A stretch of DNA of 64,000 nucleotides from a bacterium (GTDB lineage Bacteria; Bacteroidota; Bacteroidia; Chitinophagales; JADIYW01), in NCBI GenBank assembly GCA_037189845.1, contig JBBCIS010000003.1:385477-449476 (forward strand), read 5' to 3'. Each line of letters starts with the position of its first letter. Position 1 is the stretch's first letter. The notes beneath the pieces were generated by a model that saw only the letters and a program-made list of their open reading frames with translations, had not been told where the DNA came from and searched no databases. Both the position numbers and the translations under genes were made by a program. Of this stretch, positions 6,877-36,740 are shown one piece after another.

Positions 6877-7025
6877 CACGGCATTCGCATTTAACTTTTT
6901 AGCGATCGATCAAATGACAATCATCTAAAAATAGCCACGAATTCACTAATAAATGGATAAATATTCCTGTTTTTATCTTTCGTATATTAGTGGCAAACAG
7001 TAAATTTTTAAATGCGAATACCATG
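6877..7025 (+). repeat. MITE-like intergenic repeat, copy A (149 bp), imperfect TIR CACGGCATTCGCATTT / AAATGCGAATACCATG
   Basis: Near-identical internal blocks (AATCATCTAAAAATAGCCACGAATTCACTAAT...GTATATTAGTGGCAAACAG) recur at 36525-36740 and, reverse-complemented, at 15189-15380. Terminal inverted repeat match 14/16. TGGCAG occurs at both flanks. Confidence 0.7.
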
Positions 7026-7047
7026 TACTGGCAGTAAAAAATTCTTT

Positions 7048-10000
7048 TTATTCTTTCATCATCTCCAATTTTATCAGGCGTTTTTCGAGGTCTGAGTTGT
7101 GGGTTTTCTGAGTGCTCAGCTCGGCACCCAGGGTGTTGATGATTTGTTGCTGTTCCTGTATGGCTTTGGTGAGTACCCCTATTAGCTCCGTGGTGTTCAA
7201 TCCGAGATATTTTTCATCCAATTGGGAAACTAAGTTATAGCCTTCCATCTGGTGTGCCTGCAAATTGGATTGTACGTCCTGTGCTATAAATCCGATGGTT
7301 TTTCTTTCGGTATCCGAATTGTTATATACATATTCCACAGGCTGGAGCCGCATGACAAAATCCAATCCGGGTTTGAGGGGCTGTATATTATGCTTCAATC
7401 TTCTGTCGGAAGCATTTGTCCAGGAAGCAGCAAACATCCGGTACACGTTGTGTGCATTGTTTCCGATGGTCACTTCATTGCTCGCATTTATTGCAGAGGC
7501 CTGTGCATTATATCCTATCATGACATTATTGTCTCCCGTCACTAAAGCATCTCCGGCGGATGAACCCAGAGCCACATTGTTTGACCCTATGGTATTTCCA
7601 AGTAAGGCCTGATATCCTATAGCTGTATTCTGTCCCCCCAAAGTATTACTGACCAATGTATTTGTTCCCAATGTGACGTTCATCCCTCCTGAGCTGTTAT
7701 TTTGCAAAGAGCGAAAGCCTACGGCAGTGTTAGCATTTCCTGTGTTGATGGAAGGATTGTTTGAGCCTCTCAGCGCCCCTTTTCCTATTGCTACATTCTG
7801 ATTAATGAAAGCAGTAAGAGTATTATTTGCATAACACATAGCGCTATCCCCAATCGCAGTAGCCCCGGATCCGCGTATGTTCCTGAGTAGTGCATGCATA
7901 CCTACAGCAGTGTTCTGATTGCCGATGGTATTTTCAACAAGTGCTTCTACCCCGATAGCCGTGTTATTATTTCCCATTGTGTTTCGAAGAAGCGCACCTC
8001 TCCCGATGGCTGTATTTTGGTATCCCTCTGTGTTTTGCCAAAGTGTTCCCGACCCGATAGCAGTATTCCGGTAGCCTGTAGTATTTGCGTAAAGTGCACT
8101 TTCTCCCATTGCAGTATTAGCGTATCCGGTAGTAGTATTAAACATGGACTGATAACCCACAGCGATATTATTGTAGCCTGTATTATTTGCCGCATTGGCT
8201 GACCCCCTCAGTGCTTCATAGCCTATGGCAATGTTCTTGCTGTCAAATGAGGTAATTCTTGAATTGGCATAGTACATCGCTCTGTAGCCAATTGCAATAG
8301 TACGGGATACTGCCCTGTTGCTGTAAAGTGCTTCTACCCCGATGGCCGTATTATTATTTCCCACCGTGTTCTGATAAAGGGCCTGAAAACCGCATGCTAT
8401 ATTATTATATCCGCTTGTGTTCTGATAAAGGACCTGAGAACCGTATGCCATGTTATTATATCCGCTTGTATTCTGATAAAGGGCCTGATACCCATACACC
8501 GCATTATCATTTCCGCTTCTATTGGAAAAGAGCGACTGATACCCTGTCGCTGTATTATTATTTCCTATGTTGATTGCCGCATTGGTTGACCCTCTCAATG
8601 CTTCATAACCTACTGCAACATTATAATTTTCAAATGCAGTAACTCTGCTGCTGGTATAGTACATCGCCCTGCTACCGATAGCAGTGGCATGTGATCCGGC
8701 TACGTTGTTGTGAAGTGTCTCAAATCCTACCGCCGTATTCAGATTTCCGTCCATGTTCCGCATAAGTGCATCTCGTCCCACCACTGTATTTTCATATCCG
8801 GAATTATTATTCCAAAGAGCACCCTGCCCGAGTGCCGTATTTGAATATCCTGTTCGATTGGCCCAGAGCGTACGCTCACCGATTGCGGAGTTGGCATATC
8901 CTGTAGTATTCTCCCACATAGATTGATAGCCTACAACAGTATTATTGTAGCCCGTATTATTTACCGCATTGGTTGATCCTCTCAGTGCCTCATAACCAAT
9001 AGCGGTATTTCTGCTGTCAAACGAGGTAGCCGTTGAATTGGCATAATACATTGCCCCGCTACCGATAGCAACAGCTCTATAACCTGCCCTATTGCTGTAA
9101 AGGGACTCTGCACCGATGGCCGTATTATTATTTCCTGTAGTATTGTTGCGAAGTGCATTCATTCCAAAAGCAGAATTAGCAGTTCCTGTATTGGTCTCTA
9201 AACTTCTGTATCCCAAAGACGTATTCCTTCCTGTAGTGTCTATTCTCCCTGCTTTCTGGTTATTGACCCTGAAATTCAGCGGTACATTATCTGTCGTACC
9301 TATGAAATGTGTGCCGTCCATAGTGCCGGAATTTCCAGTGAGTGACCAATAGTTGGCCAGGGTTAAATTCTGCCAGCTTGCCACACCGTCTGCATCAGAA
9401 GTAAGGACTTTACCTGCGCCCGGTACACCACCGCGAATACGTATCTGTCCATTGATGTCCAAAGATTGGGTTGGAGTGCTGGTGCCTATCCCGACCCTGT
9501 TTCCTCCACCCTGCAATATCAAAGGTAAAAGTGTACTGCCGTCTGTGGCGATAGCATCAATAACCCCGACACCAAGAGAGCGACTGGGCATGATGCGAAC
9601 AACAGCACTGGTGGCATTAGGAGTGGTTACTGCATCCTGATCAGTTATCCAGAGTTGTTTGTTGTTGTTTCTGTTCACTCCGGCCATGATGGCAATACCG
9701 CTTGCAGCATTGCCGCTCGGGGTTACATATTCCTGTCCGCTGATGGTCAGGTTAGCCTGCCGCTGGGTGGTCTTGTTGATTTCTACGGCACCCGTATTGG
9801 CAGAAATCACTCTTCCGGCTCCTGCTCCTCCAAAATTATATGCTTCATTCAGTGTTCCTCCTCCGGTAATGGGTGTTTCCCATGTTGCTACTCCGCTTGC
9901 ATCGGAAGTGAGGACTTTTCCTCCCCCCGGTGCACCGCCCCGGATACGGACTTGTCCTACGATATCTAATTTTGCAGTAGGTGCACCAGTGCCTATTCCT

Positions 10001-10839
10001 ACATTTACATTGGTGGTATCACCGAGTACGAGACTATTGCTCATACTCACCTGGGCATTATAACCTATAGCCGTGGCATTTGTCAAATTACTAAATATAA
10101 CGCCTGCATTATAGCCAAGTGCTGTATTATTATTCCCGGAACCATTGGAGAAAAGTGAATACCTGCCAGTAGCAGTATTATTATTTCCCGTATTATTAGA
10201 ATAAAGCGCACCATCTCCATTGGCAGTATTATTTGTCCCTGTGGTATTATGCCTAAGTGCGGTATATCCATTAGCACTGTTATTGCTTCCTGTTGTATTG
10301 TTGAGGAGACTATACATTCCAAAAGCAGAGTTTCCTATTCCGGTATTAACATCCAGACTTCTGTACCCAATAGAGGTATTAGCCCTAATACTATCTATTC
10401 GCCCTGATTTTTGATTATTGACTCTGAAATTCAGCGGACTGCCGTCCGTAGTACCTATAAAATGTGTGCCGTCTACAGTGCCGGAGTTACCAGTAAGAGA
10501 CCAATCGTCACTAAGCTCTCCGGCTGTGATTAATTTTGTCCAGACAGGTGTAACAACACTGCCGGCATTATAATAAAAACCAGTTCCTCCCCCGATGGAG
10601 GAATTGATGTTCCAGACTAAGAGAGATGTAGCAGGATTGGGAATAGTAACAGCATCTGATGTACTGTTCAGAAAAACTCTGGGTATCAGCAGGCCTTTGT
10701 TGCTCGCACTGATGTCCAGCATGGCAGAGTTGTCAGGAGCAGCCCCGGTAGAATTGATACCGATATTTTGTGCCGGTGCCCCGGAATATTCGATAAATAA
10801 GAATACTATCAGTAAACTGATCTTTAATTTATCTTTCAT
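7048..10839 (-). CDS. secreted tail-fibre-like repeat protein with C-terminal intramolecular chaperone (peptidase S74-type) auto-processing domain
   Basis: Signal peptide MKDKLKISLLIVFLF. Dozens of ~14-17-aa N(T/N)xxGxxAL-type repeats, predicted beta-helix. Internal segmental duplications (WSLTGNSGT[VM]DGTHFIGTTD...NFRVNNQK and GIGT..P...LDI.GQ.RIRGG.PG.GKVLTSDA.GVA.W). C-terminus SDRRLKHNIQPL...IGFIAQDVQ resembles the endosialidase/tailspike chaperone domain with a DxRxK-type cleavage region. Confidence 0.8.
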   Translation of the reverse strand: MKDKLKISLLIVFLFIEYSGAPAQNIGINSTGAAPDNSAMLDISASNKGLLIPRVFLNSTSDAVTIPNPATSLLVWNINSSIGGGTGFYYNAGSVVTPVWTKLITAGELSDDWSLTGNSGTVDGTHFIGTTDGSPLNFRVNNQKSGRIDSIRANTSIGYRSLDVNTGIGNSAFGMYSLLNNTTGSNNSANGYTALRHNTTGTNNTANGDGALYSNNTGNNNTATGRYSLFSNGSGNNNTALGYNAGVIFSNLTNATAIGYNAQVSMSNSLVLGDTTNVNVGIGTGAPTAKLDIVGQVRIRGGAPGGGKVLTSDASGVATWETPITGGGTLNEAYNFGGAGAGRVISANTGAVEINKTTQRQANLTISGQEYVTPSGNAASGIAIMAGVNRNNNKQLWITDQDAVTTPNATSAVVRIMPSRSLGVGVIDAIATDGSTLLPLILQGGGNRVGIGTSTPTQSLDINGQIRIRGGVPGAGKVLTSDADGVASWQNLTLANYWSLTGNSGTMDGTHFIGTTDNVPLNFRVNNQKAGRIDTTGRNTSLGYRSLETNTGTANSAFGMNALRNNTTGNNNTAIGAESLYSNRAGYRAVAIGSGAMYYANSTATSFDSRNTAIGYEALRGSTNAVNNTGYNNTVVGYQSMWENTTGYANSAIGERTLWANRTGYSNTALGQGALWNNNSGYENTVVGRDALMRNMDGNLNTAVGFETLHNNVAGSHATAIGSRAMYYTSSRVTAFENYNVAVGYEALRGSTNAAINIGNNNTATGYQSLFSNRSGNDNAVYGYQALYQNTSGYNNMAYGSQVLYQNTSGYNNIACGFQALYQNTVGNNNTAIGVEALYSNRAVSRTIAIGYRAMYYANSRITSFDSKNIAIGYEALRGSANAANNTGYNNIAVGYQSMFNTTTGYANTAMGESALYANTTGYRNTAIGSGTLWQNTEGYQNTAIGRGALLRNTMGNNNTAIGVEALVENTIGNQNTAVGMHALLRNIRGSGATAIGDSAMCYANNTLTAFINQNVAIGKGALRGSNNPSINTGNANTAVGFRSLQNNSSGGMNVTLGTNTLVSNTLGGQNTAIGYQALLGNTIGSNNVALGSSAGDALVTGDNNVMIGYNAQASAINASNEVTIGNNAHNVYRMFAASWTNASDRRLKHNIQPLKPGLDFVMRLQPVEYVYNNSDTERKTIGFIAQDVQSNLQAHQMEGYNLVSQLDEKYLGLNTTELIGVLTKAIQEQQQIINTLGAELSTQKTHNSDLEKRLIKLEMMKE
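8366..8518 (-). repeat. 3 x 51-bp in-frame tandem repeat inside the tail-fibre-like gene (a further partial copy at ~8315-8365)
   Basis: Units GTGTTCTGATAAAGGGCCTGAAAACCGCATGCTATATTATTATATCCGCTT x3 at >85% identity, encoding 17-aa repeats. Confidence 0.85.
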
Positions 10840-10975
10840 CTCATGCTACTATAATGGTCAAACAAATACCGACAGACTTCCTGAAAAGAGCTGTCGCAGG
10901 GTAGTCGACAAATATATTGTTGAGATATATTTTAAAAAATAGCCATTTTAGCTATTTTTTAAAGATAAAGTGCGC

Positions 10976-13538: not shown

Positions 13539-13669
13539 ATAGCGTGTTTAGTAGTAGTTTGAGCAACTAATATACTAAATAGTATAAACTATGATGATAC
13601 ATTTATATAGCACGCAAGCATATTATAATGCAATCTGTATAAATCAATAACAGGCAGGATATCTGTGTA

Positions 13670-13707: not shown

Positions 13708-13728
13708 ATCTGTCAAAGTTTTATCTAC

Positions 13729-14319: not shown

Positions 14320-14353
14320 AGTGCTTTTATATTGATAACCTTAAAAAAGGAAA

Positions 14354-15109
14354 TTAGTTTGAACGATGAAAAATAGTGGCAGATGCCTGAGCTGCAGGAA
14401 GAATGAAAATCTCTTCGATATTTACATGTTTAGGCTGGCTGGCCATAAAATAAACGCTTTCCGCCACATCTTCTCCTTTAAGTGGTTCAAATCCATCGTA
14501 AGTTTTATCTGCCAGTTCCTGATTTCCTTTATACCTTACTAATGAGAATTCCGTATCTGCTGCTCCCGGACTGACTACGGACACTTTGATCCCATGCTGT
14601 ACCAAATCTATTCTCATACTTCTGGTCAGCGCCCGTACTCCGTGCTTGGTAGCACAGTACACATTACCTCCGCCATAGGATTCAATGCCGGCAAGCGATG
14701 CAATATTGATGATATGACCTTTACCGTTTTTAATCAGTATCGGTGTCAGCTCCCGGGTTACATACAACAATCCTTTGAGATTGGTATCAATCATCCTTTC
14801 CCAGTCATCATAGATCCCTTCCTGGATAGGGCCTCTACCCACAGCCAGTCCTGCATTGTTCACCAATACATCTATCTGAGACCACTTTTCATCCAATGCT
14901 GCAATATTTTCTTTCACTGCAGGAAGATCTCTGACGTCATAATTTTGTATCAAAACATCTACCTGATATCTGGATAAAATCTGAGATTTTAATTCTTCCA
15001 ATCTTTCTCTCCGGCGACCGGTAATCACGATATCCCATCCCATTGAGGAGAATTTCCATGCACAAGCCTCGCCTATTCCGGATGTCGCTCCGGTGATGTA
15101 TGCTATCAT
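14354..15109 (-). CDS. short-chain dehydrogenase/reductase (SDR)
   Basis: ITGATSGIGEACA (TGxxxGxG), NNAG and a YxxxK-type catalytic region. Start set at the internal Met (MIAYITGATSGIG), because the ORF-track extension to 15202 overlaps repeat copy C and encodes no plausible sequence. Confidence 0.85.
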   Translation of the reverse strand: MIAYITGATSGIGEACAWKFSSMGWDIVITGRRRERLEELKSQILSRYQVDVLIQNYDVRDLPAVKENIAALDEKWSQIDVLVNNAGLAVGRGPIQEGIYDDWERMIDTNLKGLLYVTRELTPILIKNGKGHIINIASLAGIESYGGGNVYCATKHGVRALTRSMRIDLVQHGIKVSVVSPGAADTEFSLVRYKGNQELADKTYDGFEPLKGEDVAESVYFMASQPKHVNIEEIFILPAAQASATIFHRSN

Positions 15110-15188
15110 AATGAAAAACTCAGTTGAGTAAAGTAAGCTGCAAAAGTAAGGGAATACATGGAGAATAAGAAAACAACTGGAAATAAGA

Positions 15189-15380
15189 CACGGCGTTCGC
15201 ATATAAAAGTTTATTGTTTGCCACTAATACACAAATTGATTCTTTCAGCATGACAAAGAAGTTTTTATTATCATGATTTATAGTCAGACTGTCTGTTCAA
15301 GAAAGAAACAAGACTCTTTATCCATTGATTAGTGAATTCGTGGCTATCTATTTTGGATGATTACCTGGCGAACTTTCGCT
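15189..15380 (-). repeat. MITE-like intergenic repeat, copy C (reverse orientation, one end divergent)
   Basis: Reverse complement contains AATCATCCAAAATAGATAGCCACGAATTCACTAATCAATGGATAAA...TGTGTATTAGTGGCAAACAATAAACTTTTATATGCGAACGCCGTG, matching copies A and B. Confidence 0.65.
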
Positions 15381-15505
15381 AAGAGCATAAAATTCTGATA
15401 ATCAACTTCCATGTATACTACCCAGGAAGGTAGTCATCAAAACTACCTGATTTCTATCCCTGCTGAAATTCTTCAGAATAAAAAAAGTTTGGAATTTCAT
15501 CAGCT

Positions 15506-19518: not shown

Positions 19519-20322
19519 TTATACCGGACTATTCTTACCTTTCCTGTTGAAAGTATAGTAGACAGCCATTCCAGTGAAAAGCAGGCCTCCCACAATATTT
19601 CCGATAGTAACAATGGATTGGTTATACCACCAGTCTGCTATGGTGACATTGGCTCCGAAAAGGATGCCCGCCGGAATGACAAACATATTGACGACTGCAT
19701 GTTCAAAACCTAAAGCGAAAAAGATGAAAATAGGAATCCCTGCCGCTACTATTTTTCCTACAGTGGACTTTGATGTCATAGACATGACGACTCCCATGCA
19801 GACCATCCAGTTGCAAAGTATGGCTTTAATAAATGCTGAGACGGCTCCTGCGCTTCCATACTGCATATAGGCAATGGTTTTTTTTTCAGCAACTTTGACA
19901 ATCATTTGTTCTATCGGATCTCCGGTCTGAATTGCTCCCATCATCGATATAGCTGCCCAGTAAAATAATGCGTACAGCAAGCTACCGATGAGATTGCCCA
20001 GAAATACCCAGAACAGGTTGGAAAGCATGAGTCTGCCGGAAATCTGTTTCTCCATATATGCGATAGGAATTATTGCAAAGCTGCCAGTCACCAGCTCCAG
20101 CCCCAGCAGAACGATAATGACGAATCCTACAGGAAAAACAATGGCTCCTATCAGAGGCGTATTTGTCTGTGTAACTGCTGCGAACGCAAGTGTGACCGAT
20201 ATAGCAAGCAATGCTCCGGAAAGCATTCCCCTGATGATGAGGTCTTTGGTGGGTAATGCTGATTTTGTAAGGGCGGCACTGAGCATTGTGCCTGCAACTT
20301 CTTTGGGTGATACGTAATCCAT
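19519..20322 (-). CDS. formate/nitrite transporter family protein (likely nitrite transporter NirC-like)
   Basis: FNT-family membrane protein, 267 aa, last gene of a co-oriented nirB-nirD cluster. Confidence 0.8.
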   Translation of the reverse strand: MDYVSPKEVAGTMLSAALTKSALPTKDLIIRGMLSGALLAISVTLAFAAVTQTNTPLIGAIVFPVGFVIIVLLGLELVTGSFAIIPIAYMEKQISGRLMLSNLFWVFLGNLIGSLLYALFYWAAISMMGAIQTGDPIEQMIVKVAEKKTIAYMQYGSAGAVSAFIKAILCNWMVCMGVVMSMTSKSTVGKIVAAGIPIFIFFALGFEHAVVNMFVIPAGILFGANVTIADWWYNQSIVTIGNIVGGLLFTGMAVYYTFNRKGKNSPV

Positions 20323-20506
20323 AGTTTTTTTGTTTAAGGTTTAAGGTTTGATGTTTAAAGTTTTGCTGTCGCCCGGTGGCTGAGCAGTTCGACTACGTGG
20401 TTGTTGAGCCCAGTCGAAACACTTACTGACCACGGAGTTGGAGCCTGATTGAGTCCACGGTCCACAGACCGCCGTATTTGTCGTCTGTCATCCGTGGTCT
20501 GTTGAG

Positions 20507-25989: not shown

Positions 25990-28900
25990 TCAATTATCTC
26001 CACCTCTTTTTCCAAGCAGCTTCACCAGTTTCTGCATGTGCTCATTCAGCCCGGAGAATTGCATCAGTACCTGTGCAGTCTTGTCATCATCAGCGATACC
26101 GGAAAACTGGTTGTTTTTGCGGAAGGTTTCTGTGATGTGCAAATAGCGGGCCTGCTCTTCCGGAGTGGCGATATGCATCAGATGTTTCAGCTTTAAAAGA
26201 TTGGCTTCGGCATCGGAAGTGAGTGTCTGCGCATCTGCCTCATAAGATCCGATCACCAGCTGTATCAGCTCCTGCTCATTCATTAACGGGACGACTTTCG
26301 TGACCATTTTATTCATGTTGCGGTATGAACCCTGTAATTTGAACGCAGGTTCTGTACGGTAGGTGTCTTTCATTCCTGCGCTCTGAATGTATAGTTCGTT
26401 GACCTGAAGAATAATATTTCTGATGTACAGACAGTTTTTCAGAACAGCTATGCTGTCTTCGATTTCGGCAGCTGTATGGTTGGCTTCCAACTCCGGACTG
26501 TATTCTTCTTTGCGCTCGATATACTGTATGAGCTTGTACAGATCATTGATGTTTTTGTGGGCTATCGCCTGGAGATACCTGTTTTCGCTGATGGCATTTT
26601 CTATCAGGCTGAGGTCAAAATATTGCCTGCTCTCTCCTGCCACATCTCCCAGATTATATACATCCGAACGATTGGCCAGCATGTCCGGGATTTTGAAAAG
26701 ATTACCGCTTTCTGTATATGGATTACCCGCCATGACCACGCAGAATCTTTTGCCACGAAGGTCATAAGTTTTACTTTCTGATTCAAAGATGCCGTCTATC
26801 TTGCGCTGTCCGTCTGCCAGAGAGATAAACTGCTGTAAAAATTCAGGGCTGCAATGCTGGATATCATCTACATACAGCATGACATTGTCCGCCATCTCAA
26901 AGGAGAGGTTAATTTTTTCCAACTCTGCTTTTGCTCCTGAATTGGTAGCTTCTGACGGATCGATGCTGGTGATGCGGTGACCGATAGTAGGGCCGTTGAT
27001 TTTTACAAAATGTAGTCCCATCGTTGCTGCCAGATATTCCATCAGAGTGGTTTTACCATAACCCGGAGGAGAAATCAACAACAGCATACCCATTCTTGCT
27101 GTCCGCTTGTCATTGCCGATAGTACCCAGCTGCTTGGACAAATTGGCTCCAATCATAGGGAAATAGACTTCATTGATGAGCTTATTTCTCATGAATGAGC
27201 TGAGTACTTTGGGACGCATTTCCTGAATTTTTAACCGCTGCTCATATTTTTGGATGAGTCCGCGTTTGGTTTCCCTGAATGAGTCATACAACGGAACTGT
27301 TGTCTCATCGAAATGCTGTAAACGATTCAGAAAATCATGGTACTGAATATGATATCCCTGATCTGAGATCACCGGATGAGTACCCTTTAAGTCATGAATG
27401 GTCATGGCATCTGTACCGATGTGTTCCCGGTATGCATCAAATTCAAAAACCAGCAGACAGGCTGCTTCTTCTATATATTTGAGATTATAGGAATTTTCTT
27501 TTTGTGTAGTAACGAAGGCCTCTATCCAGTCCGAAATGGTATGGTAGCGTTCATAGAGGCTATACTGCTGATTGCGCGCATCTTCTTCAAAACGCTCCAT
27601 CTGATGGAGGTCATTCAGGTGCCTGATAAAATCATTTTTGATATGGATAGCCGGAATACTGGCGGTAAAAACCGGAGTATCCTCAAATTCAGCTATCAGA
27701 TATGATGCTATTGAATGAATGGTCCGCTGATGTAATTCGGGGTGAATTTTTTGTATCTCCTGTGTCAGTGCTTTGAAGGATTTCAATTCTTCAAATGGTG
27801 TCTGAAATAATTGATGAATCTTATGGGCTGATTGTATCCATTGGGATAATTTTTCCCTGGTTGCTTCTTCCAATTGTTTCCAGTACAATTGAGCCTGCAC
27901 CCTGATTTCTACAGAAAATCTCAGCACACCGAGTTCTTCATACATTTTCAGTAATGCTTCAAATATCATCAAGGCATCTGTATTGTGTACACCTTTTACA
28001 TATCCGCCTGCGTAATCTCTTTCTATTAAATTATCAATATAGGTCAATGCAGAAAATCCGTTATCCGTTTTGGTATAAGCTATAAAGGTGAGATAAGCCA
28101 GATATTCCGCCCGGTAAACGCCCGGATTTTCTGAACGGTAATCCTGATCCCAGACACTGATATATTGCTGAAAGATTTTCTGATCAATAGGCTGGTAAAA
28201 GTTGGTTCCCATCAGGTGATACATGAGCCTGTCCTGATGTTTGACGATGGTGAGCGATAATTCCTGCTTATTGACCGCAAACTTATATGTACCAAGTGCG
28301 ATAATATTTTGTCCGTCCACAAAAAGTTCGGCCTGATCATGCAAGACCCTCACTGCATTTTCCTGCGCCAGCTTGAGACTGTTAAGCAGGTTTTCAGCTT
28401 TCCCGACATCACCGAGCTGCTGAAGCTCCTGCGCAAGATTCCGGATTTTTTCTATCATGAGATCGCCGGCAAAAAAGCTGAAGATTTCTTCTGTTGAGCT
28501 AAAGCTACGGGCTTTGGTTTCCACACTTTTCAGGACACGAAGTCCTATTTGCTCAAGATTCCCGGTCCGTTTATTGATCTGTGCGATCAACATTTCTTTT
28601 TTACCATTGAAAGCTTTGACTACCTCATCCCGCTTATCAGCTATTTTCATTATAAACTCATCAAAGTCCGCAAACTTGCTTTCCAGCTCTTCGATGTGGA
28701 CACTGATTTTGGTGAAATAGTTGTCTGTTTTTTCGACAGTATCTGAAAGGTCCAGGAAATTGACAATGCTTTGTTCGAGCAAGGTCAGCTGTGCATGAAA
28801 CTCCCCGACTGCTTCACTGGACTTCAGGGTACTTATTTTCCTGTTCAATAAAGCTCTGACTTCATTCAATGTTGAAAAAAGCAAAGAGATATTCTCAATG

Positions 28901-30837
28901 ATTTTAGTCGTTTGAGTGGTATCTTCTATTTTAAGGCTGTTCAGTATGTCAATGAGCAATTCTAATTGTCCTGCTATGCTCAGACATTCCTTTTCAATGA
29001 CCTGTGCATCTATGACTTTACTGACAGCTTCGATAGCCTGACGTTGTGCTTCGATATTTTTCTCATAAGGCAGTAAAGCATTCTCCTGTAATAAAAAGTT
29101 GATGGTTTCCTGTGAAAGTTGTTCATTGAATGCTTTAACCTGCTCTGACAAAGCCTGAATTGCCTGCTCATCAATATATCTTACCTGTAATAATTCAATG
29201 ATACTGCCCTGCGCCAGGCGGACAGTATGTAGCTGTCTGACCAGCTCATCGACTGCGGTATAACGGGCATTCCTGATGGTTTGACTCAATTGTGCAATGC
29301 GTTCCTGCATGAGCTTTTCTTGTGCGGATGCGTACTGACGCTGTGCCTGTACTTTGGCAAATTCATCTATAGCTGTATTGGCTATCTCGCTGATGGCTTT
29401 CAGCGGTTCTGCAAGATTGAAAGTTTCTTCGTCAGCCAGCCAGAAATAGCTGTCTGTCATCGCACGGGACAATCTGGCTATATCTTCATACAATCCTTCA
29501 TAACTGTCTTCTTTCCTGAGCAGCTGTACTATCTCATATCCTTCAGACATGGCGTGTACGATATCTTTATTGCCGATTTTGTACAGGACATTGTTTCTCA
29601 TTTCCCGATTTTCCACCAGGATTGCGGTATATGGAGTCTGCCAGATTTGTACCTGATGATGCCTGATGGCTTCACGTTCTGATTTGAAATAAATCAGCTT
29701 TCCATCCTGAAAAATTGTAAATCCATTGCAGATGATGGGCGTATTGACCTGCTGCTGAATCACGTTGTAAGACATCAATACATAGGTATTGGAGGTCTTC
29801 TGATAATAAACATACAGATAGTCTTCTCCATTCGGAGCTATCATGGTACGCATGTATTCCAGCTCATCTATTCCGTTGTCGAAGAGCTTATATTCTCCGT
29901 TTTGCAGATAATAGCCGTTGGAAAAGATAATTCCCTGCTGATCCGGCAATAGAACTCCGCTGTACAACAGGCTCGGAATATTATGGACTTCTTTTGTCCT
30001 GATGTTATAAATATAGGCTCTGGACTCTTCCTGGTAGGGCTGTATTTTGATAGCAATCAGGTTGCCTAAATCCGCATAAAAATAGTTGGCATCATCCAGC
30101 TGCTGATCCTTGTTGCTGACTGGTTCTGAGTAAATTCCCAGTCCACTCTCCGTATTATCTTCAATTTTGAAGGTGATGTCTCCGTTGATCGCTTCGATAA
30201 ACACCTTGTCCAGGATAGATATATGCGGATGTACCCCCAATCGCCTGTCTTCCAGACTGGTCTTTTTGAAATCAAAGCTATACTGTGGTGCAGTTCTGAC
30301 CTCATGAATGCTTCTGTCATCTATGTATTGCAGGCGATTTCCATCTATATACCACTTAAAAGCTTTCCTGTCGGCTACATTTTTTGAGCTCTGGAAAATC
30401 ATGTACAGATAATTCTCCGTCTTGTAGAATTTGGAGAAAAAGGCTTCTCTGTAGTATTTATAGAGGTTTTTAAAATCTGCTTCAAACTGTGGATCTGCAA
30501 TCAAATCCAGTGTCGTAGGCTCAAATTGTATATCCTGAAAATGATAGATACTGAATACATCATCCAGTGAGATCTCTTCTCTCAATCCAAAGTGAACATT
30601 GTAAGCAAAAATGCAATGCTCGCCCAATGCTATTATACCTCTCGCTACTCCATTGTGCTCGGTAGTGATACGCTGATTGGCAATCAGTGCAAACTGTTCG
30701 GTATTGAAAATGGCTTTTCTTCCAACATTCAATGCTGCCAAGCGATCGCTCAGTATCTTGCTCTGCTCCTGTAAACGATTACGGATAATTTCGTAAGTAC
30801 CCGCTTCTAAAGACATCATTGGATTGGATTTTGGCAT
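25990..30837 (-). CDS. giant (1615 aa) multidomain protein with MoxR-type AAA+ ATPase core; function unknown
   Basis: Uninterrupted ORF. Walker A LLLISPPGYGKTT at ~27061-27090, Walker B MLYVDDIQ, and MoxR-like sensor-1/helix-2 region FCVVMAGNPYTESGNLFKIPDMLANRSDVY. ~450-aa beta-rich N-domain and ~600-aa Q/E/L-rich helical middle. Confidence 0.7.
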   Translation of the reverse strand: MPKSNPMMSLEAGTYEIIRNRLQEQSKILSDRLAALNVGRKAIFNTEQFALIANQRITTEHNGVARGIIALGEHCIFAYNVHFGLREEISLDDVFSIYHFQDIQFEPTTLDLIADPQFEADFKNLYKYYREAFFSKFYKTENYLYMIFQSSKNVADRKAFKWYIDGNRLQYIDDRSIHEVRTAPQYSFDFKKTSLEDRRLGVHPHISILDKVFIEAINGDITFKIEDNTESGLGIYSEPVSNKDQQLDDANYFYADLGNLIAIKIQPYQEESRAYIYNIRTKEVHNIPSLLYSGVLLPDQQGIIFSNGYYLQNGEYKLFDNGIDELEYMRTMIAPNGEDYLYVYYQKTSNTYVLMSYNVIQQQVNTPIICNGFTIFQDGKLIYFKSEREAIRHHQVQIWQTPYTAILVENREMRNNVLYKIGNKDIVHAMSEGYEIVQLLRKEDSYEGLYEDIARLSRAMTDSYFWLADEETFNLAEPLKAISEIANTAIDEFAKVQAQRQYASAQEKLMQERIAQLSQTIRNARYTAVDELVRQLHTVRLAQGSIIELLQVRYIDEQAIQALSEQVKAFNEQLSQETINFLLQENALLPYEKNIEAQRQAIEAVSKVIDAQVIEKECLSIAGQLELLIDILNSLKIEDTTQTTKIIENISLLFSTLNEVRALLNRKISTLKSSEAVGEFHAQLTLLEQSIVNFLDLSDTVEKTDNYFTKISVHIEELESKFADFDEFIMKIADKRDEVVKAFNGKKEMLIAQINKRTGNLEQIGLRVLKSVETKARSFSSTEEIFSFFAGDLMIEKIRNLAQELQQLGDVGKAENLLNSLKLAQENAVRVLHDQAELFVDGQNIIALGTYKFAVNKQELSLTIVKHQDRLMYHLMGTNFYQPIDQKIFQQYISVWDQDYRSENPGVYRAEYLAYLTFIAYTKTDNGFSALTYIDNLIERDYAGGYVKGVHNTDALMIFEALLKMYEELGVLRFSVEIRVQAQLYWKQLEEATREKLSQWIQSAHKIHQLFQTPFEELKSFKALTQEIQKIHPELHQRTIHSIASYLIAEFEDTPVFTASIPAIHIKNDFIRHLNDLHQMERFEEDARNQQYSLYERYHTISDWIEAFVTTQKENSYNLKYIEEAACLLVFEFDAYREHIGTDAMTIHDLKGTHPVISDQGYHIQYHDFLNRLQHFDETTVPLYDSFRETKRGLIQKYEQRLKIQEMRPKVLSSFMRNKLINEVYFPMIGANLSKQLGTIGNDKRTARMGMLLLISPPGYGKTTLMEYLAATMGLHFVKINGPTIGHRITSIDPSEATNSGAKAELEKINLSFEMADNVMLYVDDIQHCSPEFLQQFISLADGQRKIDGIFESESKTYDLRGKRFCVVMAGNPYTESGNLFKIPDMLANRSDVYNLGDVAGESRQYFDLSLIENAISENRYLQAIAHKNINDLYKLIQYIERKEEYSPELEANHTAAEIEDSIAVLKNCLYIRNIILQVNELYIQSAGMKDTYRTEPAFKLQGSYRNMNKMVTKVVPLMNEQELIQLVIGSYEADAQTLTSDAEANLLKLKHLMHIATPEEQARYLHITETFRKNNQFSGIADDDKTAQVLMQFSGLNEHMQKLVKLLGKRGGDN

Positions 30838-30890
30838 TGATTTGAGGTTAAAGACATGAGACGAGAGACAATAGACTTAAGAAGTTTAAG

Positions 30891-30950
30891 GTTTAAAGTC
30901 TAAGGTTTAAAGTTTGCTCACGCAACGATTGAAAACCTTAGACTTTAAAC
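30891..30950. promoter_or_regulatory. 18-bp perfect inverted repeat GTTTAAAGTCTAAGGTTT-N24-AAACCTTAGACTTTAAAC between the flotillin and giant-ATPase genes
   Basis: Arms at 30891-30908 and 30933-30950 are exact reverse complements. No U-tract follows on the coding (minus) strand. Adjacent direct repeats AAGGTTTAAAGT x2. Confidence 0.6.
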
Positions 30951-30962
30951 AACTTATCAGAT

Positions 30963-33038
30963 TTACGAAAGCTTTTTATTAGACAATCCGAGATTGCTGG
31001 CCATATTCAAAAGATTATTGATTAACGGCCGGTCAGAATCATCACTCTGCTGATGCATTTTGAGTAAGATGCTGGAAATCGTCAGATTCTTAATATCGTT
31101 GGTGCTGACATTGTATTTGTCAGCAAAATCTCTGATTTTATCCAGTAGATCTCCGTTGGAAGAGCCATCTCCAATCAATGCATTTTTGATATGCGTGGCA
31201 TTCTCACTTTCGTTGATTAATCTATCGAAACCTTTGGCGTTAGAAACCTGATCGACAATATTCCGGAAGAACATGGTCTCTCCACCTACGATATCTATGT
31301 TGGCTGATTTCAGTGCCTCGGAAAGGACATCTGCCTGAGCCACTGCAACATCTTTCTGGATATTGATCTGTGCAAGTGCAATATCTTTATCTTTCTGCAC
31401 AAGGATTTTGAACTCTTCGTGGTCTTTGCCAACGCCGTCCAGCTTCTTCATTGCCTCTGCTTTCTCTTCAATACCGGATGCTTCTGCCAACGCTTTCTCT
31501 TTTGTTCCTTCTGCTTCCGCAAATGCTTTTTGTTTCATCACTTCCGCTTCCATCAGACCTTCTTTGCGTTTCGCATCTGCCATTTTCTCTACTACATTCG
31601 CCTCGACGATACCCTGGCGCTCAGTTGCAGCTGCTTTTGCCATCATTACTTCTGCTTCAGATAAACCGATAGTCGCTTCCTCACGTGCCTGGGCTTCTGC
31701 AAGAATTTTCCTTGCTTCTGCTTGTTTTGTAGCTGCATCTTTACGAGCTTCTGCATCGATCAGCATTTCTTTGGCTTTTTCTTCCGCCGCCTTTTTGTCC
31801 GCTTCTGCCGCTTTCACGGTATAGATTAATTTTTCTTCTGCCTGACGGGAAGCTTCGGTGATACCGACTGTTTTCACTCTTTCCACCTCACGGAAAGCTT
31901 CAATATCTTTGATGTTCTGCTCTTCTTCGACTACGCCTTTTTCTAATTTGACGCGCTCTTTGATGACATCCTGGATGTTTTTGCGTTCGATCTCGACCGT
32001 TTTTTCTTTCTCTATCTGGGCGAGTGTGACAATTTTCTCTTTTTCTGTCTGCTCCAATAATTTGTCTTTCTCTACTCTTTCAGTCTCTACCGCATCTGTT
32101 CTCAGCTTATTTTTCTCTGCAATGATGATCTGACGGAGCTTATTTTCTTCCTGAATGGCTAATTGTTCTTCTGTACGGATTCTGACCGTTTCAGATTTTA
32201 GTCTTTCTTCTTCTCTGACTTTGAGAATTTCTGCTTCTTCCCTGGATTTAATATTGTCAATTTCTCTTTTTTGCTTCTCTTCTTTTTCAGCCATCTGACG
32301 TTCCAATTCCAGTATAGCTTCTCTGGCTTCTACATTTTGTTTTTTGATGACTTTCTCCTCTTCTCTGCGGATCAGATTGGATTTGATATTCTGAGCGGCA
32401 GTCAGTTCCGTGATCTTTTTGATACCTTCTGAATCAAGGATATTTTCTGCACTTAAAAATCTTAGTTCCGTCTGTTCTAAATAATCGATAGCACAATCAT
32501 CTAAAATATATCCATTGAGGTCAGTACCGATCACATCCAGAATCTCATCCCTGAACTCCCGACGTGCTTCATACAGCTCTATGAAATCGAATTTTTTACC
32601 CGCAGTTTTAAGTGCTTCAGAAAATTTGGCTTCAAAAACGTTATTCAGCGTATCTACATCACTGGCACGGTCGCAACCTATCACCTGCGCTACATTGATG
32701 ACGTCATCAACACTTTTGTTGACCCGTACAAAAAATGCAACTTTGATATCTGCCCGGATATTATCCTTACAAATCAAACCATCGTGTTCCATCCGGTCGA
32801 TTTGTAATTTTTTTACGGAAATATCCATTATTTCCATTTTATGCAAAATAGGAATCACGTACATACCACTGTTAAAAGCAACCTTGCTGCCTCCGACACC
32901 TGTCCTTACGATAGCCTTGCCTTGCGGAATTTTTTTGTAAAATGTCGCAAATGCAAATAGTACAACGACGATAATGAAGATCACTCCGCATATCAACAGG
33001 ATGAGTAATCCTCCCAAATTGTCAAATAATGTTCCCAT
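30963..33038 (-). CDS. flotillin-family SPFH (band 7) protein
   Basis: N-terminal TM segment; SPFH domain; ~350 aa of E/K/A/R-rich coiled coil; 691 aa. Architecture of YqiK/FloT-type flotillins. Confidence 0.85.
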   Translation of the reverse strand: MGTLFDNLGGLLILLICGVIFIIVVVLFAFATFYKKIPQGKAIVRTGVGGSKVAFNSGMYVIPILHKMEIMDISVKKLQIDRMEHDGLICKDNIRADIKVAFFVRVNKSVDDVINVAQVIGCDRASDVDTLNNVFEAKFSEALKTAGKKFDFIELYEARREFRDEILDVIGTDLNGYILDDCAIDYLEQTELRFLSAENILDSEGIKKITELTAAQNIKSNLIRREEEKVIKKQNVEAREAILELERQMAEKEEKQKREIDNIKSREEAEILKVREEERLKSETVRIRTEEQLAIQEENKLRQIIIAEKNKLRTDAVETERVEKDKLLEQTEKEKIVTLAQIEKEKTVEIERKNIQDVIKERVKLEKGVVEEEQNIKDIEAFREVERVKTVGITEASRQAEEKLIYTVKAAEADKKAAEEKAKEMLIDAEARKDAATKQAEARKILAEAQAREEATIGLSEAEVMMAKAAATERQGIVEANVVEKMADAKRKEGLMEAEVMKQKAFAEAEGTKEKALAEASGIEEKAEAMKKLDGVGKDHEEFKILVQKDKDIALAQINIQKDVAVAQADVLSEALKSANIDIVGGETMFFRNIVDQVSNAKGFDRLINESENATHIKNALIGDGSSNGDLLDKIRDFADKYNVSTNDIKNLTISSILLKMHQQSDDSDRPLINNLLNMASNLGLSNKKLS

Positions 33039-33188
33039 GAAAATTGATTTAGTTTTAAATGTTTAAGGTTTTTTTAGTTTAAAGCCGATGAGTTTCGACA
33101 GGTGGTTTCCGGATCATTTCGACTCCGCTCAATGACCTCTTCAACACTCTATAGTGTTAACAAATTCGGCAATCGTAAATTGTAATTT

Positions 33189-33848
33189 TTAGTCTTGTAA
33201 TACATTTTGAACAGTAATCTCCGGAATGACCCAGTAGTATTTTCCTCCGTCTCCTTCATCTACCAGCATAACCTCTGCATTATATGAAATACGTTGTTTT
33301 GATTTACTTTTTACCAAAACCCTGATAACATCTTTCATAATGATAACTTCAGCATATCCCAGCTTGTCTCCTTCGATAGTAGATTTCATAAATCCTGTCC
33401 GCCCGATCAGCTCATGTGCTTCTTCGCCATTATATCCCATTGTTTTATACACTTTGATGAGTGGTTTGGTGGCCCATCTGGTCAAAAAATATGCAATGAA
33501 AAAAACCGGTAACAATATCAAAGCAGACTTCCAGCCCCATGCACCGATGTTCCAGATCATAGAAGCAGCTAAAGTAAACAACCAGGAAATCAGCTTGAAT
33601 GTACTGAGGACGACCATTATCGGCACTTTACCTACGTTAATAAATTCCAGCGCTTTGGAAAAAAAAGATGGTTCTGCGCCGTCAAGATCTGTGTCTACAT
33701 CTAATCCTTCCGGTGCTCCTACATCCAGGTCTCCCAGAAAATCTCCTGAAACGAATGTGACTAACCAATATATAGCAGACAGTCCTACTAAAGCCGTCAT
33801 GATAGCATTCGGTAAAGGGTCAAACAGATAGCTGATAATTGTTACCAT
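33189..33848 (-). CDS. NfeD-like membrane protein (YuaF/YqiJ-type, C-terminal OB-fold)
   Basis: Multi-TM N-terminus; C-terminal ...GDKLGYAEVIIMKDVIRVLVKSKSKQRISYNAEVMLVDE beta-barrel pattern. Sits immediately upstream of the flotillin gene, as in yuaF-floT / yqiJK. Confidence 0.65.
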   Translation of the reverse strand: MVTIISYLFDPLPNAIMTALVGLSAIYWLVTFVSGDFLGDLDVGAPEGLDVDTDLDGAEPSFFSKALEFINVGKVPIMVVLSTFKLISWLFTLAASMIWNIGAWGWKSALILLPVFFIAYFLTRWATKPLIKVYKTMGYNGEEAHELIGRTGFMKSTIEGDKLGYAEVIIMKDVIRVLVKSKSKQRISYNAEVMLVDEGDGGKYYWVIPEITVQNVLQD

Positions 33849-33867
33849 TGATTTTTATTCTTTTTGT

Positions 33868-34566
33868 TTACATACCCAGCTTGCTTTTGATTTCCGCAAG
33901 CTCTTTTTGAATAGAAAACCGATCATCTTTACAGATCTCGTCTATTTCATCTTTCACGCTGTGCTGAGCCTGAGCAATTTCTCCATACGCTTTAGCGAGT
34001 GCTTCCTGATCTTCAACTTTATCTTTCATTCTCTCCAGCATAGAAATCGTACTGTTGCTTTCAATCTGAGCGATTTGCTTATTCACCTGTTGTGTAGCAG
34101 CACTCACTTTGACTCTTGCACGTAACGTTTTCAGCTCCTTTTCCCATTTCGCCAGATTTTCTTTCAAGATCTGGATATTCTTCAGCATCTCTACTCCGGT
34201 CTGCTCATGAGTTTCCGCTTGTTGACCCAGCATTTCCGCATCCTCCAGATATTTTCTTTTCAGCGAAAGTGCCTCTGTTGCCAATTGCTCGGCTTTTTCA
34301 ATTTCCAGTTCCTGATCCTGTGCTTTTTTCAAAATCAGGATCGCCTTGTCTCCATAACTGACAGATTCCTTTTCACAGTGTGTCTGCTCATTTCGGGCAC
34401 GGATGCCCAAAGCTTTTACTCTGGCATACGCCTCTGTCGCTTGTGTCAAATCTTCTCTCAATTCTCTCAAACCCTGCTCTGTCATCTTCACAGGATCTTC
34501 CATTTTTTCTACAGCGGCATGAATCTCTGCCTGACCGATTCGAAATAATCTCTTGAAAATATTCAT
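33868..34566 (-). CDS. pspA: PspA/IM30 (ESCRT-III superfamily) protein
   Basis: MNIFKRLFRIGQAEIHAAVEKMEDPVKMTEQGLRELREDL aligns with the PspA/Vipp1 N-terminus (E. coli [28 protein letters not shown]); all-helical; 232 aa. Confidence 0.85.
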   Translation of the reverse strand: MNIFKRLFRIGQAEIHAAVEKMEDPVKMTEQGLRELREDLTQATEAYARVKALGIRARNEQTHCEKESVSYGDKAILILKKAQDQELEIEKAEQLATEALSLKRKYLEDAEMLGQQAETHEQTGVEMLKNIQILKENLAKWEKELKTLRARVKVSAATQQVNKQIAQIESNSTISMLERMKDKVEDQEALAKAYGEIAQAQHSVKDEIDEICKDDRFSIQKELAEIKSKLGM

Positions 34567-34585
34567 AACTTATAAATTTTAAAAA

Positions 34586-34984
34586 TTATCGTTTAGAAAA
34601 ATATATTATCTGCTCTCTGTATTCATAGAGTAGTAACCCTAATGAGTTCAGTGCAGCTTCCAGCTCGTTGAAATCCATATTCTCAATCTGCATGGTATAC
34701 CTGTACAAAACTTTATCACCCTCTTCGTTGATCACAAAGGCCCCATGCAGCATATCCCTGTTTTTCTGCAGCAATGCCTTGAACATTTCAAGATTATCTT
34801 CCTTGAATGAAAAGAGATAATACTCCATGATCAACAAGGGTGGCACTACGCCAATAATCAGATTCCTGATTCCGTCCTGCTCATTCTCAATTTTCATGAT
34901 TCCGGACAACTCATCTGCATAAGTCACTTTGTACTCTGCCTGGTGAATCAACTCCCTGATTTTATCCATGTATGATACTCTCAT
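34586..34984 (-). CDS. YbjN/DUF2170-like (type III secretion chaperone-fold) small protein, PspA-adjacent
   Basis: ~133 aa from Met MRVSYMDKIREL. Size, alpha/beta pattern and position next to pspA resemble E. coli yjfI-yjfJ and YbjN-family proteins. The ORF-track N-extension to 35074 is rejected. Confidence 0.45.
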   Translation of the reverse strand: MRVSYMDKIRELIHQAEYKVTYADELSGIMKIENEQDGIRNLIIGVVPPLLIMEYYLFSFKEDNLEMFKALLQKNRDMLHGAFVINEEGDKVLYRYTMQIENMDFNELEAALNSLGLLLYEYREQIIYFSKR

Positions 34985-35051
34985 AGGCAATTTATTTTTA
35001 GATTGAAAATATTGCTTACCTTTAAGCATAATAAAATTAGCAAAAAATATT

Positions 35052-35078
35052 TTAATTGCAAATATTTTTTGCAATTAA
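35052..35078. promoter_or_regulatory. perfect palindromic operator TTAATTGCAAA-N5-TTTGCAATTAA in the divergent promoter between the XRE regulator and the PspA cluster
   Basis: 11-bp arms are exact reverse complements. Additional half-site-like AATTAGCAAAA (35033) and AATTAGCACAT (35087, overlapping the XRE start codon). Confidence 0.7.
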
Positions 35079-35097
35079 GGAAAAATAATTAGCACAT

Positions 35098-35775
35098 ATG
35101 ACAAAGTTCGGTGTAAATATTAAGAAAATCAGGAAGACAAAAGGGCTAAGCCAACAGTCTCTTGCCGATATTTTCAATATTACCAGGGGGAACATCTCTT
35201 CTTATGAAGATAACCGCGCTGAGCCCAGACTAGAAACTATTATATCAATTGCTAATTATTTTGGCATTACAATTGAAAAATTATTAACAAAAGACCTCAC
35301 TATTAATGAGATCCTGCAGTTCAATTCAGATAAAATCATAGAAGATGAACAGAGATTGAGCAATCTGAAGCTGAAAGATGTTTATTTTATTAGCGATGAT
35401 ATTTTAGCAAAAGGCCTGCATCAGGATATCAGCTTTGAGGATTTTGACCAGTTTCCGCTTATTAAAATTCCGGACACCAGCACTTCATCTATTATCGCAT
35501 TGAGCTTCAATTCTAATATCCCGCATCATCAATATTTTGAGCAGTTTCCTTTAAATGATTTGTTGTTTTTCAGAAATATAGACCCTGCAAATATTCATCT
35601 TCTGGATCAGAAAATGGGGATGTCACTGAGTTCTCATAGCATTGTTTTAGGTCAATTTATTCAAGAACCTGATCAGGAAATTACTTTTTTTCTGAATCAG
35701 CAGTATCAGGAAAAAGTGGACTTGCAACAGACCAAGAGATACTGGAAGTTATTTGCCAGCTACAAGCATTTATAG
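35098..35775 (+). CDS. XRE (Cro/cI-type) HTH transcriptional regulator with uncharacterised C-terminal domain
   Basis: N-terminal IKKIRKTKGLSQQSLADIFNITRGNISSYEDNRAEPRLETIISIANYFGITIEKLL is a canonical XRE HTH; 225 aa. Confidence 0.8.
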   Translation: MTKFGVNIKKIRKTKGLSQQSLADIFNITRGNISSYEDNRAEPRLETIISIANYFGITIEKLLTKDLTINEILQFNSDKIIEDEQRLSNLKLKDVYFISDDILAKGLHQDISFEDFDQFPLIKIPDTSTSSIIALSFNSNIPHHQYFEQFPLNDLLFFRNIDPANIHLLDQKMGMSLSSHSIVLGQFIQEPDQEITFFLNQQYQEKVDLQQTKRYWKLFASYKHL

Positions 35776-36085
35776 TTGAACCTTATTTTTCTGCCACTAA
35801 GGCACCAAGGTACAAAGATATTTAACTATAAAAATTAGACTAAAAATTTCGAGTCTTTGTGTCTTAGTGGCAAATATTACAATTCTGACACGAAGCCACA
35901 AAGGTGTTTAGCAATAAGAATCAGATGATAAGACATTTGTAACCAACTCCATTTACGGCTATATTTTTTCAAAAAAATCACTACGAAATGAGCTTCACGC
36001 ATGAGACAAGATGCATGAATTTTTCTTTGGAGAGCTATCTACAACTTTCACTTTTTAGATGGATATTTGATTAAAATCTACATAT

Positions 36086-36484
36086 ATGAAACACCTTGCT
36101 TTTTGTTTTTTAGCACTATTTACATATAAGGCAAATGCCCAACTAATTATCACAACATCTTTACGCCAAGATGCTGTCTGGGATGAAAATAAAGAAGAAT
36201 GGGAGGTACTTTCTTCTGAAGAAGGGAGTACACTTTTTGAGTTTGACCGCGAACTGACGCAATTCAAGCATACTACTCCAAGTATATCATCTGTTTATTA
36301 CATCGAAGATTGGGAGTACAATGAAGAAAATGTAAAATACACGATGGATGTTACGAGTGATGCAGGGAATGAGTATGAGTTAATCATTGACGGTATCAAC
36401 AATTGTGTGGCATTTTTTTACTGGAAGCAGGATAAATATATTCTCGTCAGACACACGATTGCTGAGACCAGGTTTGAAGAGTAG
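36086..36484 (+). CDS. hypothetical small secreted protein
   Basis: Signal peptide MKHLAFCFLALFTYKANAQ; no recognisable motif. Confidence 0.4.
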   Translation: MKHLAFCFLALFTYKANAQLIITTSLRQDAVWDENKEEWEVLSSEEGSTLFEFDRELTQFKHTTPSISSVYYIEDWEYNEENVKYTMDVTSDAGNEYELIIDGINNCVAFFYWKQDKYILVRHTIAETRFEE

Positions 36485-36524
36485 GTAAGTTCTTATTCTG
36501 AAAAATATCAACCGGTAGACAAAT

Positions 36525-36740
36525 CACGGCATTCGCATTTAACTTTTTAGAGAATAGTAGAAAAATAATCATTTAAAATTTAGCTACGAATTCACTTATT
36601 AGAGGATAAATATTCCTGTTCTTTTCATGAAACGAGTGGCATCATGATAATATAATGATATCAAAAGCTTCTTTTCCCTGTTGAAAAATTCAATTCGTGT
36701 ATTAGTGGCAAACAATCTGCTTTTAATTGCGAGCGCCGTG
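36525..36740 (+). repeat. MITE-like intergenic repeat, copy B (216 bp), imperfect TIR CACGGCATTCGCATTT / AATTGCGAGCGCCGTG
   Basis: Shares both end blocks with copy A and carries an extra internal ~70-bp segment. Confidence 0.7.

Follow-up and report, generated by a model that had tools for sequence, protein, structure and literature searches.

Our study describes a family of short intergenic repeats in a 64,000-nt stretch of bacterial DNA, hereafter the window (GTDB lineage Bacteria; Bacteroidota; Bacteroidia; Chitinophagales; JADIYW01; assembly GCA_037189845.1, contig JBBCIS010000003.1, positions 385,477 to 449,476 of the forward strand), to which the coordinates below refer unless another contig is named. 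The three homologous copies in the window, A, B and C, constitute a genuine repeat family, and we consider it probable that they are decayed members of an old, lineage-restricted family of small non-autonomous transposons resembling MITEs (miniature inverted-repeat transposable elements). These copies lie in the approximately 81 kb of source contig that we inspected, and one further copy, D, was found in a related species:

6877..7025, + strand: copy A, 149-bp short form with both terminal repeats (nhmmer E=1.9e-34, model positions 1-214)
36525..36740, + strand: copy B, 216-bp long form with both terminal repeats (nhmmer E=9.9e-64)
15189..15392, - strand: copy C, 204-bp long form, truncated at its 5' end (nhmmer E=4e-60, model positions 13-214)
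Contig L009, 15827-15918: copy D, found where a 21-kb Logan contig of SRR27749064 ends; 84% identity with B across 92 nt

The homology of the copies was established from repeat detection, alignment and an nhmmer profile built from the copies themselves, which found nothing else convincing in the window. A preliminary description made from the sequence had placed copies A and B at these same limits; for copy C, the locus and the reverse orientation given there hold, but the end lies at approximately 15392 instead of 15380, and the left terminus is absent, not diverged. The sequence blocks said to be shared by all copies are indeed present, but only approximately, with B deviating from them at several positions. 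Pairwise identities range from 71 to 79% among A, B and C, and from 71 to 84% when copy D is included. Against dinucleotide-shuffled sequence, the 18-mer AGCCACGAATTCACTAAT of the left core occurs three times in the window at up to 3 mismatches where 0.02 occurrences are expected, and the terminal 18-mer has six matches (five element ends and one at chance level) where 0.05 are expected. In all copies, the similarity breaks off sharply at CACGG / CCGTG.

Structure of the element

The element is bounded by terminal inverted repeats of 18 nt and contains a second, internal inverted repeat, which is the best-conserved core of all copies:

6877..6894, + strand: left terminal inverted repeat of A, CACGGCATTCGCATTTAA, 0 mismatches
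7008..7025, - strand: right terminal inverted repeat of A, CATGGTATTCGCATTTAA read inward, 16/18 match to the left repeat
36525..36542, + strand: left terminal inverted repeat of B, equal to the left repeat of A (CACGGCATTCGCATTTAA)
36723..36740, - strand: right terminal inverted repeat of B, CACGGCGCTCGCAATTAA read inward, 15/18 match to the left repeat
15189..15206, + strand: right terminal inverted repeat of C, CACGGCGTTCGCATATAA read inward, the only terminus that C retains
6934..6994 (in copy A), + strand: internal inverted repeat, GCCAC(gaattc)ACTAAT ... ATTAGTGGC

The two termini of A match in inverted orientation at 14 of 16 positions, the same count as originally noted, at 16 of 18 over the full 18 nt, and at 80% over 25 nt. 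The right ends of B, C and D have CACGGCG(C/T)TCGCA in common, and their likeness indicates that the consensus termini of the family are slightly asymmetric. At the opposite end of copy C, the alignment begins at model position 13, and the 12 nt found in place of the left terminus are unrelated to it.

A segment of approximately 66 nt distinguishes the long form from the short one. The preliminary description had taken it for an internal insertion in B; however, the same segment is found in C and D and is missing only from A, so A is an internal-deletion derivative. As for coding, all six frames of A, B and C are broken by stops, and the longest stop-free stretch in the copies (48 aa, inside a 59-aa open reading frame that runs into the flank) is not conserved between them. 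The element is without transposase coding capacity.

Direct repeats at the putative insertion sites

Both copies that retain two termini are flanked by similar 9-mers, which we regard as putative target-site duplications:

6868..6876, + strand: left flanking 9-mer of A, TCGTGGCAG, 7/9 match to 7026-7034
7026..7034, + strand: right flanking 9-mer of A, TACTGGCAG
36516..36524, + strand: left flanking 9-mer of B, TAGACAAAT, 7/9 match to 36741-36749
36741..36749, + strand: right flanking 9-mer of B, CCGACAAAT

The hexamer TGGCAG, reported earlier on both sides of A, is found at 6871-6876 and 7029-7034, and our study adds a second, independent duplication at B (GACAAAT, again 7/9 when read as a 9-mer). 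When 9-mers are drawn at random from the window at a spacing of 149 or 216 nt, the probability of at least 7 matches in 9 is 0.00325 per copy, which gives a joint chance of approximately 1e-5; in a looser test, where any exact repeat between the 12-nt flanks counts, P is 0.02 for a length of at least 6 nt and 0.005 for at least 7 nt. The flanking repeats fit the mark of a staggered-cut insertion that has since decayed. From the two copies, the length of the duplication would be 6-9 bp, with 9 bp as its inferred value.

Interpretation as a MITE-like family

In the working definition of prokaryotic MITEs, these are non-coding, intergenic elements of 50-800 bp with inverted ends of at least 10-15 bp and a duplication of 2-10 bp (bioRxiv 10.1101/2024.01.18.576219, PMC4596501). 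The element described here falls under this definition: its sizes of 149 bp (A), 216 bp (B) and 204 bp (the truncated C) lie inside the range, and its 18-nt termini match at 16/18 (A) and 15/18 (B). The MITE interpretation already offered in the preliminary description is thus supported by the size, the termini, the flanking duplications at A and B, the lack of coding capacity, the dispersed intergenic sites and the existence of copy D elsewhere.

Under this interpretation, the termini of approximately 18 bp (CACGGCATTCGCATTTAA on the left; on the right, read inward, the consensus CACGGCGYTCGCATTTAA) would be recognized by a transposase encoded elsewhere, or since lost. This enzyme would cleave the DNA at the CACGG...CCGTG ends and join the element to a target with staggered cuts, the repair of which would duplicate approximately 9 bp. 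The parent element would then be bounded by CACGGCRYTCGCATTTAA in inverted orientation. A duplication of 9 bp is compatible, for example, with elements of the IS4 family or the IS5/IS903 group. The ancestral element measured approximately 215 bp, A having afterwards lost 66 internal nucleotides and C its left end. We infer transposition in trans followed by a loss of activity. Because the copies are only 71-84% identical and the duplications only 7/9 intact, the family is old and probably predates the split from the SRR27749064 relative.

It is important to consider the observations that weigh against this interpretation. The flanking repeats are imperfect: as exact repeats they measure 6 nt at A and 7 nt at B, with offsets of 3 and 2 nt, respectively, relative to the right end. 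Neither the window nor 17 kb of additional flank nor approximately 130 kb of sequence from relatives yielded an autonomous element or transposase whose ends match. No clean empty site at an orthologous position turned up among the relatives, so mobility is deduced, not observed. Only four copies are known, from the approximately 81 kb of source contig and the contigs of relatives. Finally, the right end of B, C and D lies 73-103 nt upstream of a gene start, which may point to a function instead of, or besides, an insertion preference.

Copy D and the comparison with relatives

The SRR27749064 organism, which carries copy D, has an SDR protein 88% identical to that of the window. Copy D has the internal segment of the long form, terminates at the same ...GCGAGCGCCGTG as B, and is located, at a locus unrelated to those of A, B and C, 73 nt upstream of a gene that faintly matches Sigma70_r2. 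The contig breaks inside the copy, perhaps because it is a repeat or simply because of low coverage. Copy D is nearer to B than is copy C, and a diversification of the family ahead of the lineage split is therefore probable. No further copy was found in the 17 kb of source contig beyond the window (8.3 kb to its left and 9 kb to its right), nor in approximately 130 kb from seven other related samples.

The region of copy C could be compared with its counterparts upstream of the SDR gene in six relatives that do not have the element, and synteny is broken there. Approximately 65 nt upstream of the SDR gene, including a -7 box of the TAnnTTTG type, are conserved in relatives, and this block begins within approximately 10 nt of the right terminus of C. 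The upstream neighbor of the SDR gene is GldB in the three closest relatives, whereas in the window copy C and then a Fib_succ_major gene take that place. The conserved block that adjoins C, together with GldB on its far side in relatives, places C exactly at the synteny breakpoint. Its position and its lost end would fit a rearrangement through the element. In the contig L021 of a relative, a GerE gene is directly followed by the orthologue of the Fib_succ_major gene near copy A, without the 1263-aa gene that lies between them in the window and without A. This is not a clean empty site for A, but the arrangement would fit a later acquisition of the segment with the 1263-aa gene and A in the lineage of the window.

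Distribution of the family

No member of the family came to light in exact-pattern scans of 185,579 species genomes (one per species), JGI metagenome contigs and IMG/VR; these scans demand an exact match at 19-20 fixed bases, so that diverged relatives are missed by them. Searches with blastn against plasmid and phage collections gave no match, and the six-frame stop-free peptides of the three copies, concatenated and compared with 5.8 billion proteins, returned nothing at E<=10. A search with the concatenated proteins of the two Fib_succ_major genes (Fib1 and Fib2), made for orthologous and paralogous loci, retrieved mostly distant multi-domain proteins, and the contigs L017, L018 and L021 that came from it contain no copy of the element. 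As far as these sequence searches reach, the family is restricted to its lineage.

Some candidates from the scans were rejected. The metagenome scan with TATTAGTGGCAAACANTNNNNTTTT returned five loci, all of them chance matches within unrelated sequence; in viral contigs, the terminal repeat gave one chance match and the core pattern none. The genome scan with ACGAATTCACTNATNNNNGGATAA, which matches A, B and C, had a single match, in a metagenome-assembled genome (MAG) labelled as Acidobacteriota (L001, contig CAZYAF010000011.1, 38% GC, 4404-4504, - strand). With the left-central block of copy A, this locus shares approximately 52 nt at 81% identity, and the similarity outside the scanned pattern has P ~0.001; there are no termini and no right arm, and we regard this match as uncertain and do not count it as a member. 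It lies approximately 110 nt upstream of a 516-aa gene that is preceded by a Shine-Dalgarno sequence and whose product appears carboxyltransferase-like at its N-terminus.

Genomic context and gene starts

The sequence of the window also forms part of the 965-kb contig JBBCKK010019223.1 in NCBI assembly GCA_037189325.1. The copies are dispersed and intergenic, and lie just outside promoters or terminators. Copy A is found 22 nt past the stop of a 1263-aa gene with a Peptidase_S74 domain and 340 nt upstream of a Fib_succ_major gene (fib1), from which it is separated by a terminator-like palindrome (6615-6650). Copy C has the SDR promoter on one side (80 nt from the start codon) and on the other a second, divergent Fib_succ_major gene. 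Copy B is preceded, at a distance of 40 nt, by a 132-aa gene and followed after approximately 100 nt by the likely true start of a protein sorted by the type IX secretion system (T9SS).

As the preliminary description had noticed, the copies are intergenic and two of them abut gene 5' ends, where reading frames acquire spurious N-terminal extensions: the open reading frames 14354-15202 (-) and 36681-39503 (+) begin inside C and B, respectively. The first of them is the SDR gene, whose NCBI record has 282 aa and starts inside copy C; its orthologues have 251 aa and start with MIAYITG, which corresponds to window position 15109. Homologues of the SDR protein carry the names of Chitinophagales MAG proteins; the closest of them are 84-90% identical and come mostly from Logan assemblies. 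The T9SS protein probably starts at MKKIFTG (approximately 36843), not at the TTG inside copy B. It had also been stated that the window holds no transposase, and none of the window genes scanned matches a transposase Pfam family; the scan was made directly or through precomputed hits on L002, L013 and L016, and a few genes have no Pfam match of any kind.

The surroundings of copy A have further peculiarities. The terminator-like palindrome AAAAATAGCCAaatTGGCTATTTTT occurs twice in the window, at 6615-6650 and 10925-10960, the two occurrences being 4310 nt apart and 81% identical over 36 nt, and together they bracket the 1263-aa gene and copy A. The same palindrome occurs once in relatives, between GerE and the Fib orthologue (L021, approximately 893-915; L018, 1-25). 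A single palindrome in relatives and a double one in the window make the 4.3-kb segment look like an insertion or duplication at the hairpin. A comparison of the element with this GerE-associated palindrome yielded, as their one common sequence, the 10-mer AAAATAGCCA, found 3 times against 0.35 expected, a count that 1 of 100 shuffles equals.

The 1263-aa protein itself (7048-10839, - strand) is internally repetitive, with units of 387 nt (129 aa) and of 51 nt, and carries a Peptidase_S74 (endosialidase chaperone) domain at its C-terminus; PTL_trimer appears in its precomputed annotation. It has a tail-fibre-like architecture, and its gene is chromosomal, stands beside the GerE regulator and is absent from L021. 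Between copy A and the palindrome, approximately 225 nt (6651-6876, - strand) appear GC-richer than their surroundings, contain only short, unconserved open reading frames, end at the terminator-like hairpin and have no other copy in the DNA examined; they may represent a small transcript or the remnant 3' region of an acquired segment.

Alternative explanations

One alternative, which we consider unlikely, is a cassette with a host function, spread by recombination or exapted from a transposon and acting on neighboring secreted-protein genes; it could be a gene for a structured small RNA, a terminator module or a cis-regulatory one. One line of evidence concerns structure. Secondary-structure prediction, which the preliminary description had proposed as a check, gave a divided answer: copy A folds well beyond shuffled sequences (z=-4.3 and -6.7 for the + and - strands), whereas B and C fold no better than shuffles (z=-1.6 and +0.2). 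The consensus fold retains only the inner stem of 11 pairs with 0 compensatory changes, although three sequences give this analysis little power. A curated RNA family does not account for the element either: Rfam 15 has 0 matches in the window at gathering thresholds, and in permissive mode only noise was obtained, from eukaryotic snoRNA and miRNA models (E>0.7; E of at least 0.77).

Another line concerns position. In three of the four copies (B, C and D), the right end lies in the same orientation 73-103 nt upstream of a gene start; however, this pattern of orientation and distance was recognized post hoc, and it is equally explained by the survival of insertions that spare promoters. Similarly, the only two Fib_succ_major genes of the window each have a copy upstream with its left end proximal (post-hoc chance of approximately 0.005), but the two Fib proteins are only 32% identical, copy D stands beside a different type of gene, and the palindrome at 6615-6650 between A and fib1 indicates that A is not in the fib1 promoter. 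By eye, no promoter box of the TAnnTTTG type is present on either strand of the element. The recurrence of the 52-nt left-central stretch upstream of a gene in the unrelated Acidobacteriota-labelled MAG, at the probability given above for the part outside the scanned pattern, would favor a function, whereas flanking duplications are unexpected for a cassette that spreads by recombination. The small RNA or regulatory cassette that the preliminary description had left as its alternative finds no positive support in the null result with Rfam, the lack of compensatory changes and the fact that only A exceeds its shuffles.

A combination of both ideas, to which we would give little credence, is a mobile cassette that has been domesticated: it would insert, or be kept, in one orientation at a distance of approximately 70-100 nt upstream of start codons, in front of genes for secreted or surface proteins and of other genes, and would provide them with a leader that is structured, with an operator or with an upstream promoter element. 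On this reading, the core AATCAT.TAAAATAGCCACGAATTCACTAAT....GGATAA would serve as a module that binds protein or RNA, and another phylum (L001) would hold a related copy.

It could also be thought that promoter regions were carried along in segmental duplications of paralogous genes without any insertion, given that A and C share both a position upstream of a Fib_succ_major paralogue and their orientation relative to it. This is very improbable and has been largely refuted: the DNA similarity of approximately 78% is confined to the element and ends at its termini, while the adjacent upstream DNA is unalignable and protein identity is only 32%; no Fib gene adjoins B or D, and a duplication of promoters leaves the inverted termini and the flanking direct repeats unexplained. 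That A and C, which are inverted relative to each other with their right ends facing inward, could be the ends of a composite transposon carrying the 8.1-kb segment 7026-15188 is hardly credible, considering that a simple insertion is indicated for A by a flanking duplication of its own, that the outer end of C is missing, that the segment holds a housekeeping SDR-NifU pair with a promoter conserved in relatives, and that the adjacency of GerE and Fib across the position of A in L021 may be the older arrangement.

Relation to known elements and significance

MITE families have been recognized in several bacterial groups, such as Correia/NEMIS in Neisseria, RUP in Streptococcus pneumoniae, ERIC/IRU in enterobacteria and Nezha in cyanobacteria. 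Like them, the element described here is AT-rich and intergenic, exists as several diverged copies with internal-deletion variants, and tends to lie next to promoters and terminators. Unlike them, it has no sequence similarity to any of these families as far as the searches of Rfam, plasmids and phages could tell; its termini begin with CACGG and its duplication is probably of 9 bp, whereas the target duplication of Correia and RUP is TA.

Within the Bacteroidota, the described MITEs are the MITE-like elements BrickBuilt and MITE239/293/464/700 of Porphyromonas gingivalis (PMC4596501, PMC2575886). The likeness to our element goes beyond the phylum, given that both are exclusively intergenic, occur as full and partial copies, lie in some cases at points of rearrangement and have spurious open reading frames predicted through them. 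However, the P. gingivalis elements have termini of the IS5-family type (GAGACCTTTGCA) and internal tandem repeats of 23 or 41 nt, whereas the termini here are unrelated and there are no tandem repeats; the order also differs, ours being Chitinophagales-like. The element further resembles the REP/BIME palindromes that are mobilized by RAYT transposases, which are also dispersed, intergenic and capable of forming hairpins (PMC3733652), but REPs are single palindromes of 20-40 bp with GTAG or CGTC heads and without target duplication (PMC3733652). An element that measures 150-215 bp, is flanked by direct repeats and has inverted repeats of two distinct kinds, terminal and internal, does not fit this identity, which we therefore rejected.

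The family is an ordinary kind of feature and opens no new mechanism. Its relevance is practical: at least two gene starts are wrong on its account, including one in a public annotation (the SDR gene, 282 versus 251 aa), one of its copies (C) marks a rearrangement breakpoint, and it can serve as a marker specific to the lineage of an uncultured Chitinophagales-like group. The discovery of the parent transposase would add one pair of a MITE and its insertion sequence (IS) to a Bacteroidota catalogue that is thin outside Porphyromonas and Bacteroides.

Other repeats and gene clusters in the window

Two degenerate relatives of the family had been suggested, at 3185-3440 and at 35790-35900, and neither could be sustained as such. 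The first has no profile match even at E<=100 in a search of 1.6 kb. The second has only approximately 30 nt that resemble the right inner block of the element (E=0.086 over all DNA examined, 2.5e-4 in a small search), and these make up the arm of a separate structure:

35792..35875, + strand: hairpin of approximately 82 nt with a stem of approximately 14 bp and arms TGCCACTAAGGCAC / GTGTCTTAGTGGCA, which weakly resemble GTGTATTAGTGGCA of the element (E=0.086)

This hairpin may be a distant relative at best and is no demonstrated member of the family. The region of the first suggested remnant belongs to a 373-bp intergenic segment (3184-3556) located between TilS and an amine-oxidase gene, which has its own inverted repeats of 26 nt (TGGTTCTACCAC..., 85% complementary) at 3184-3209 and 3531-3556. 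Profile search finds it unrelated to the MITE-like family, and there is no other copy of it in the DNA examined; two Logan contigs from the same organism (L014 and L015) both end at position 3317, inside this segment.

Elsewhere in the window, short tandem motifs of the GTTTAAGG/GTTTAAAG type (AAACCTTAAAC on the coding strand) occur at 20321-20363, 30880-30915 and 33043-33071, that is, 0-45 nt upstream of three minus-strand gene starts (20322, 30837 and 33038), and may constitute a common leader or regulatory motif. Finally, a run of minus-strand genes at 25990-35074 encodes a 1615-aa DUF3686/DUF7902/AAA protein, two proteins of 691 and 219 aa without a Pfam match, a PspA/IM30 protein and a CesT/YbjN-like protein, and it looks like an uncharacterized cluster of the stress or defense type.

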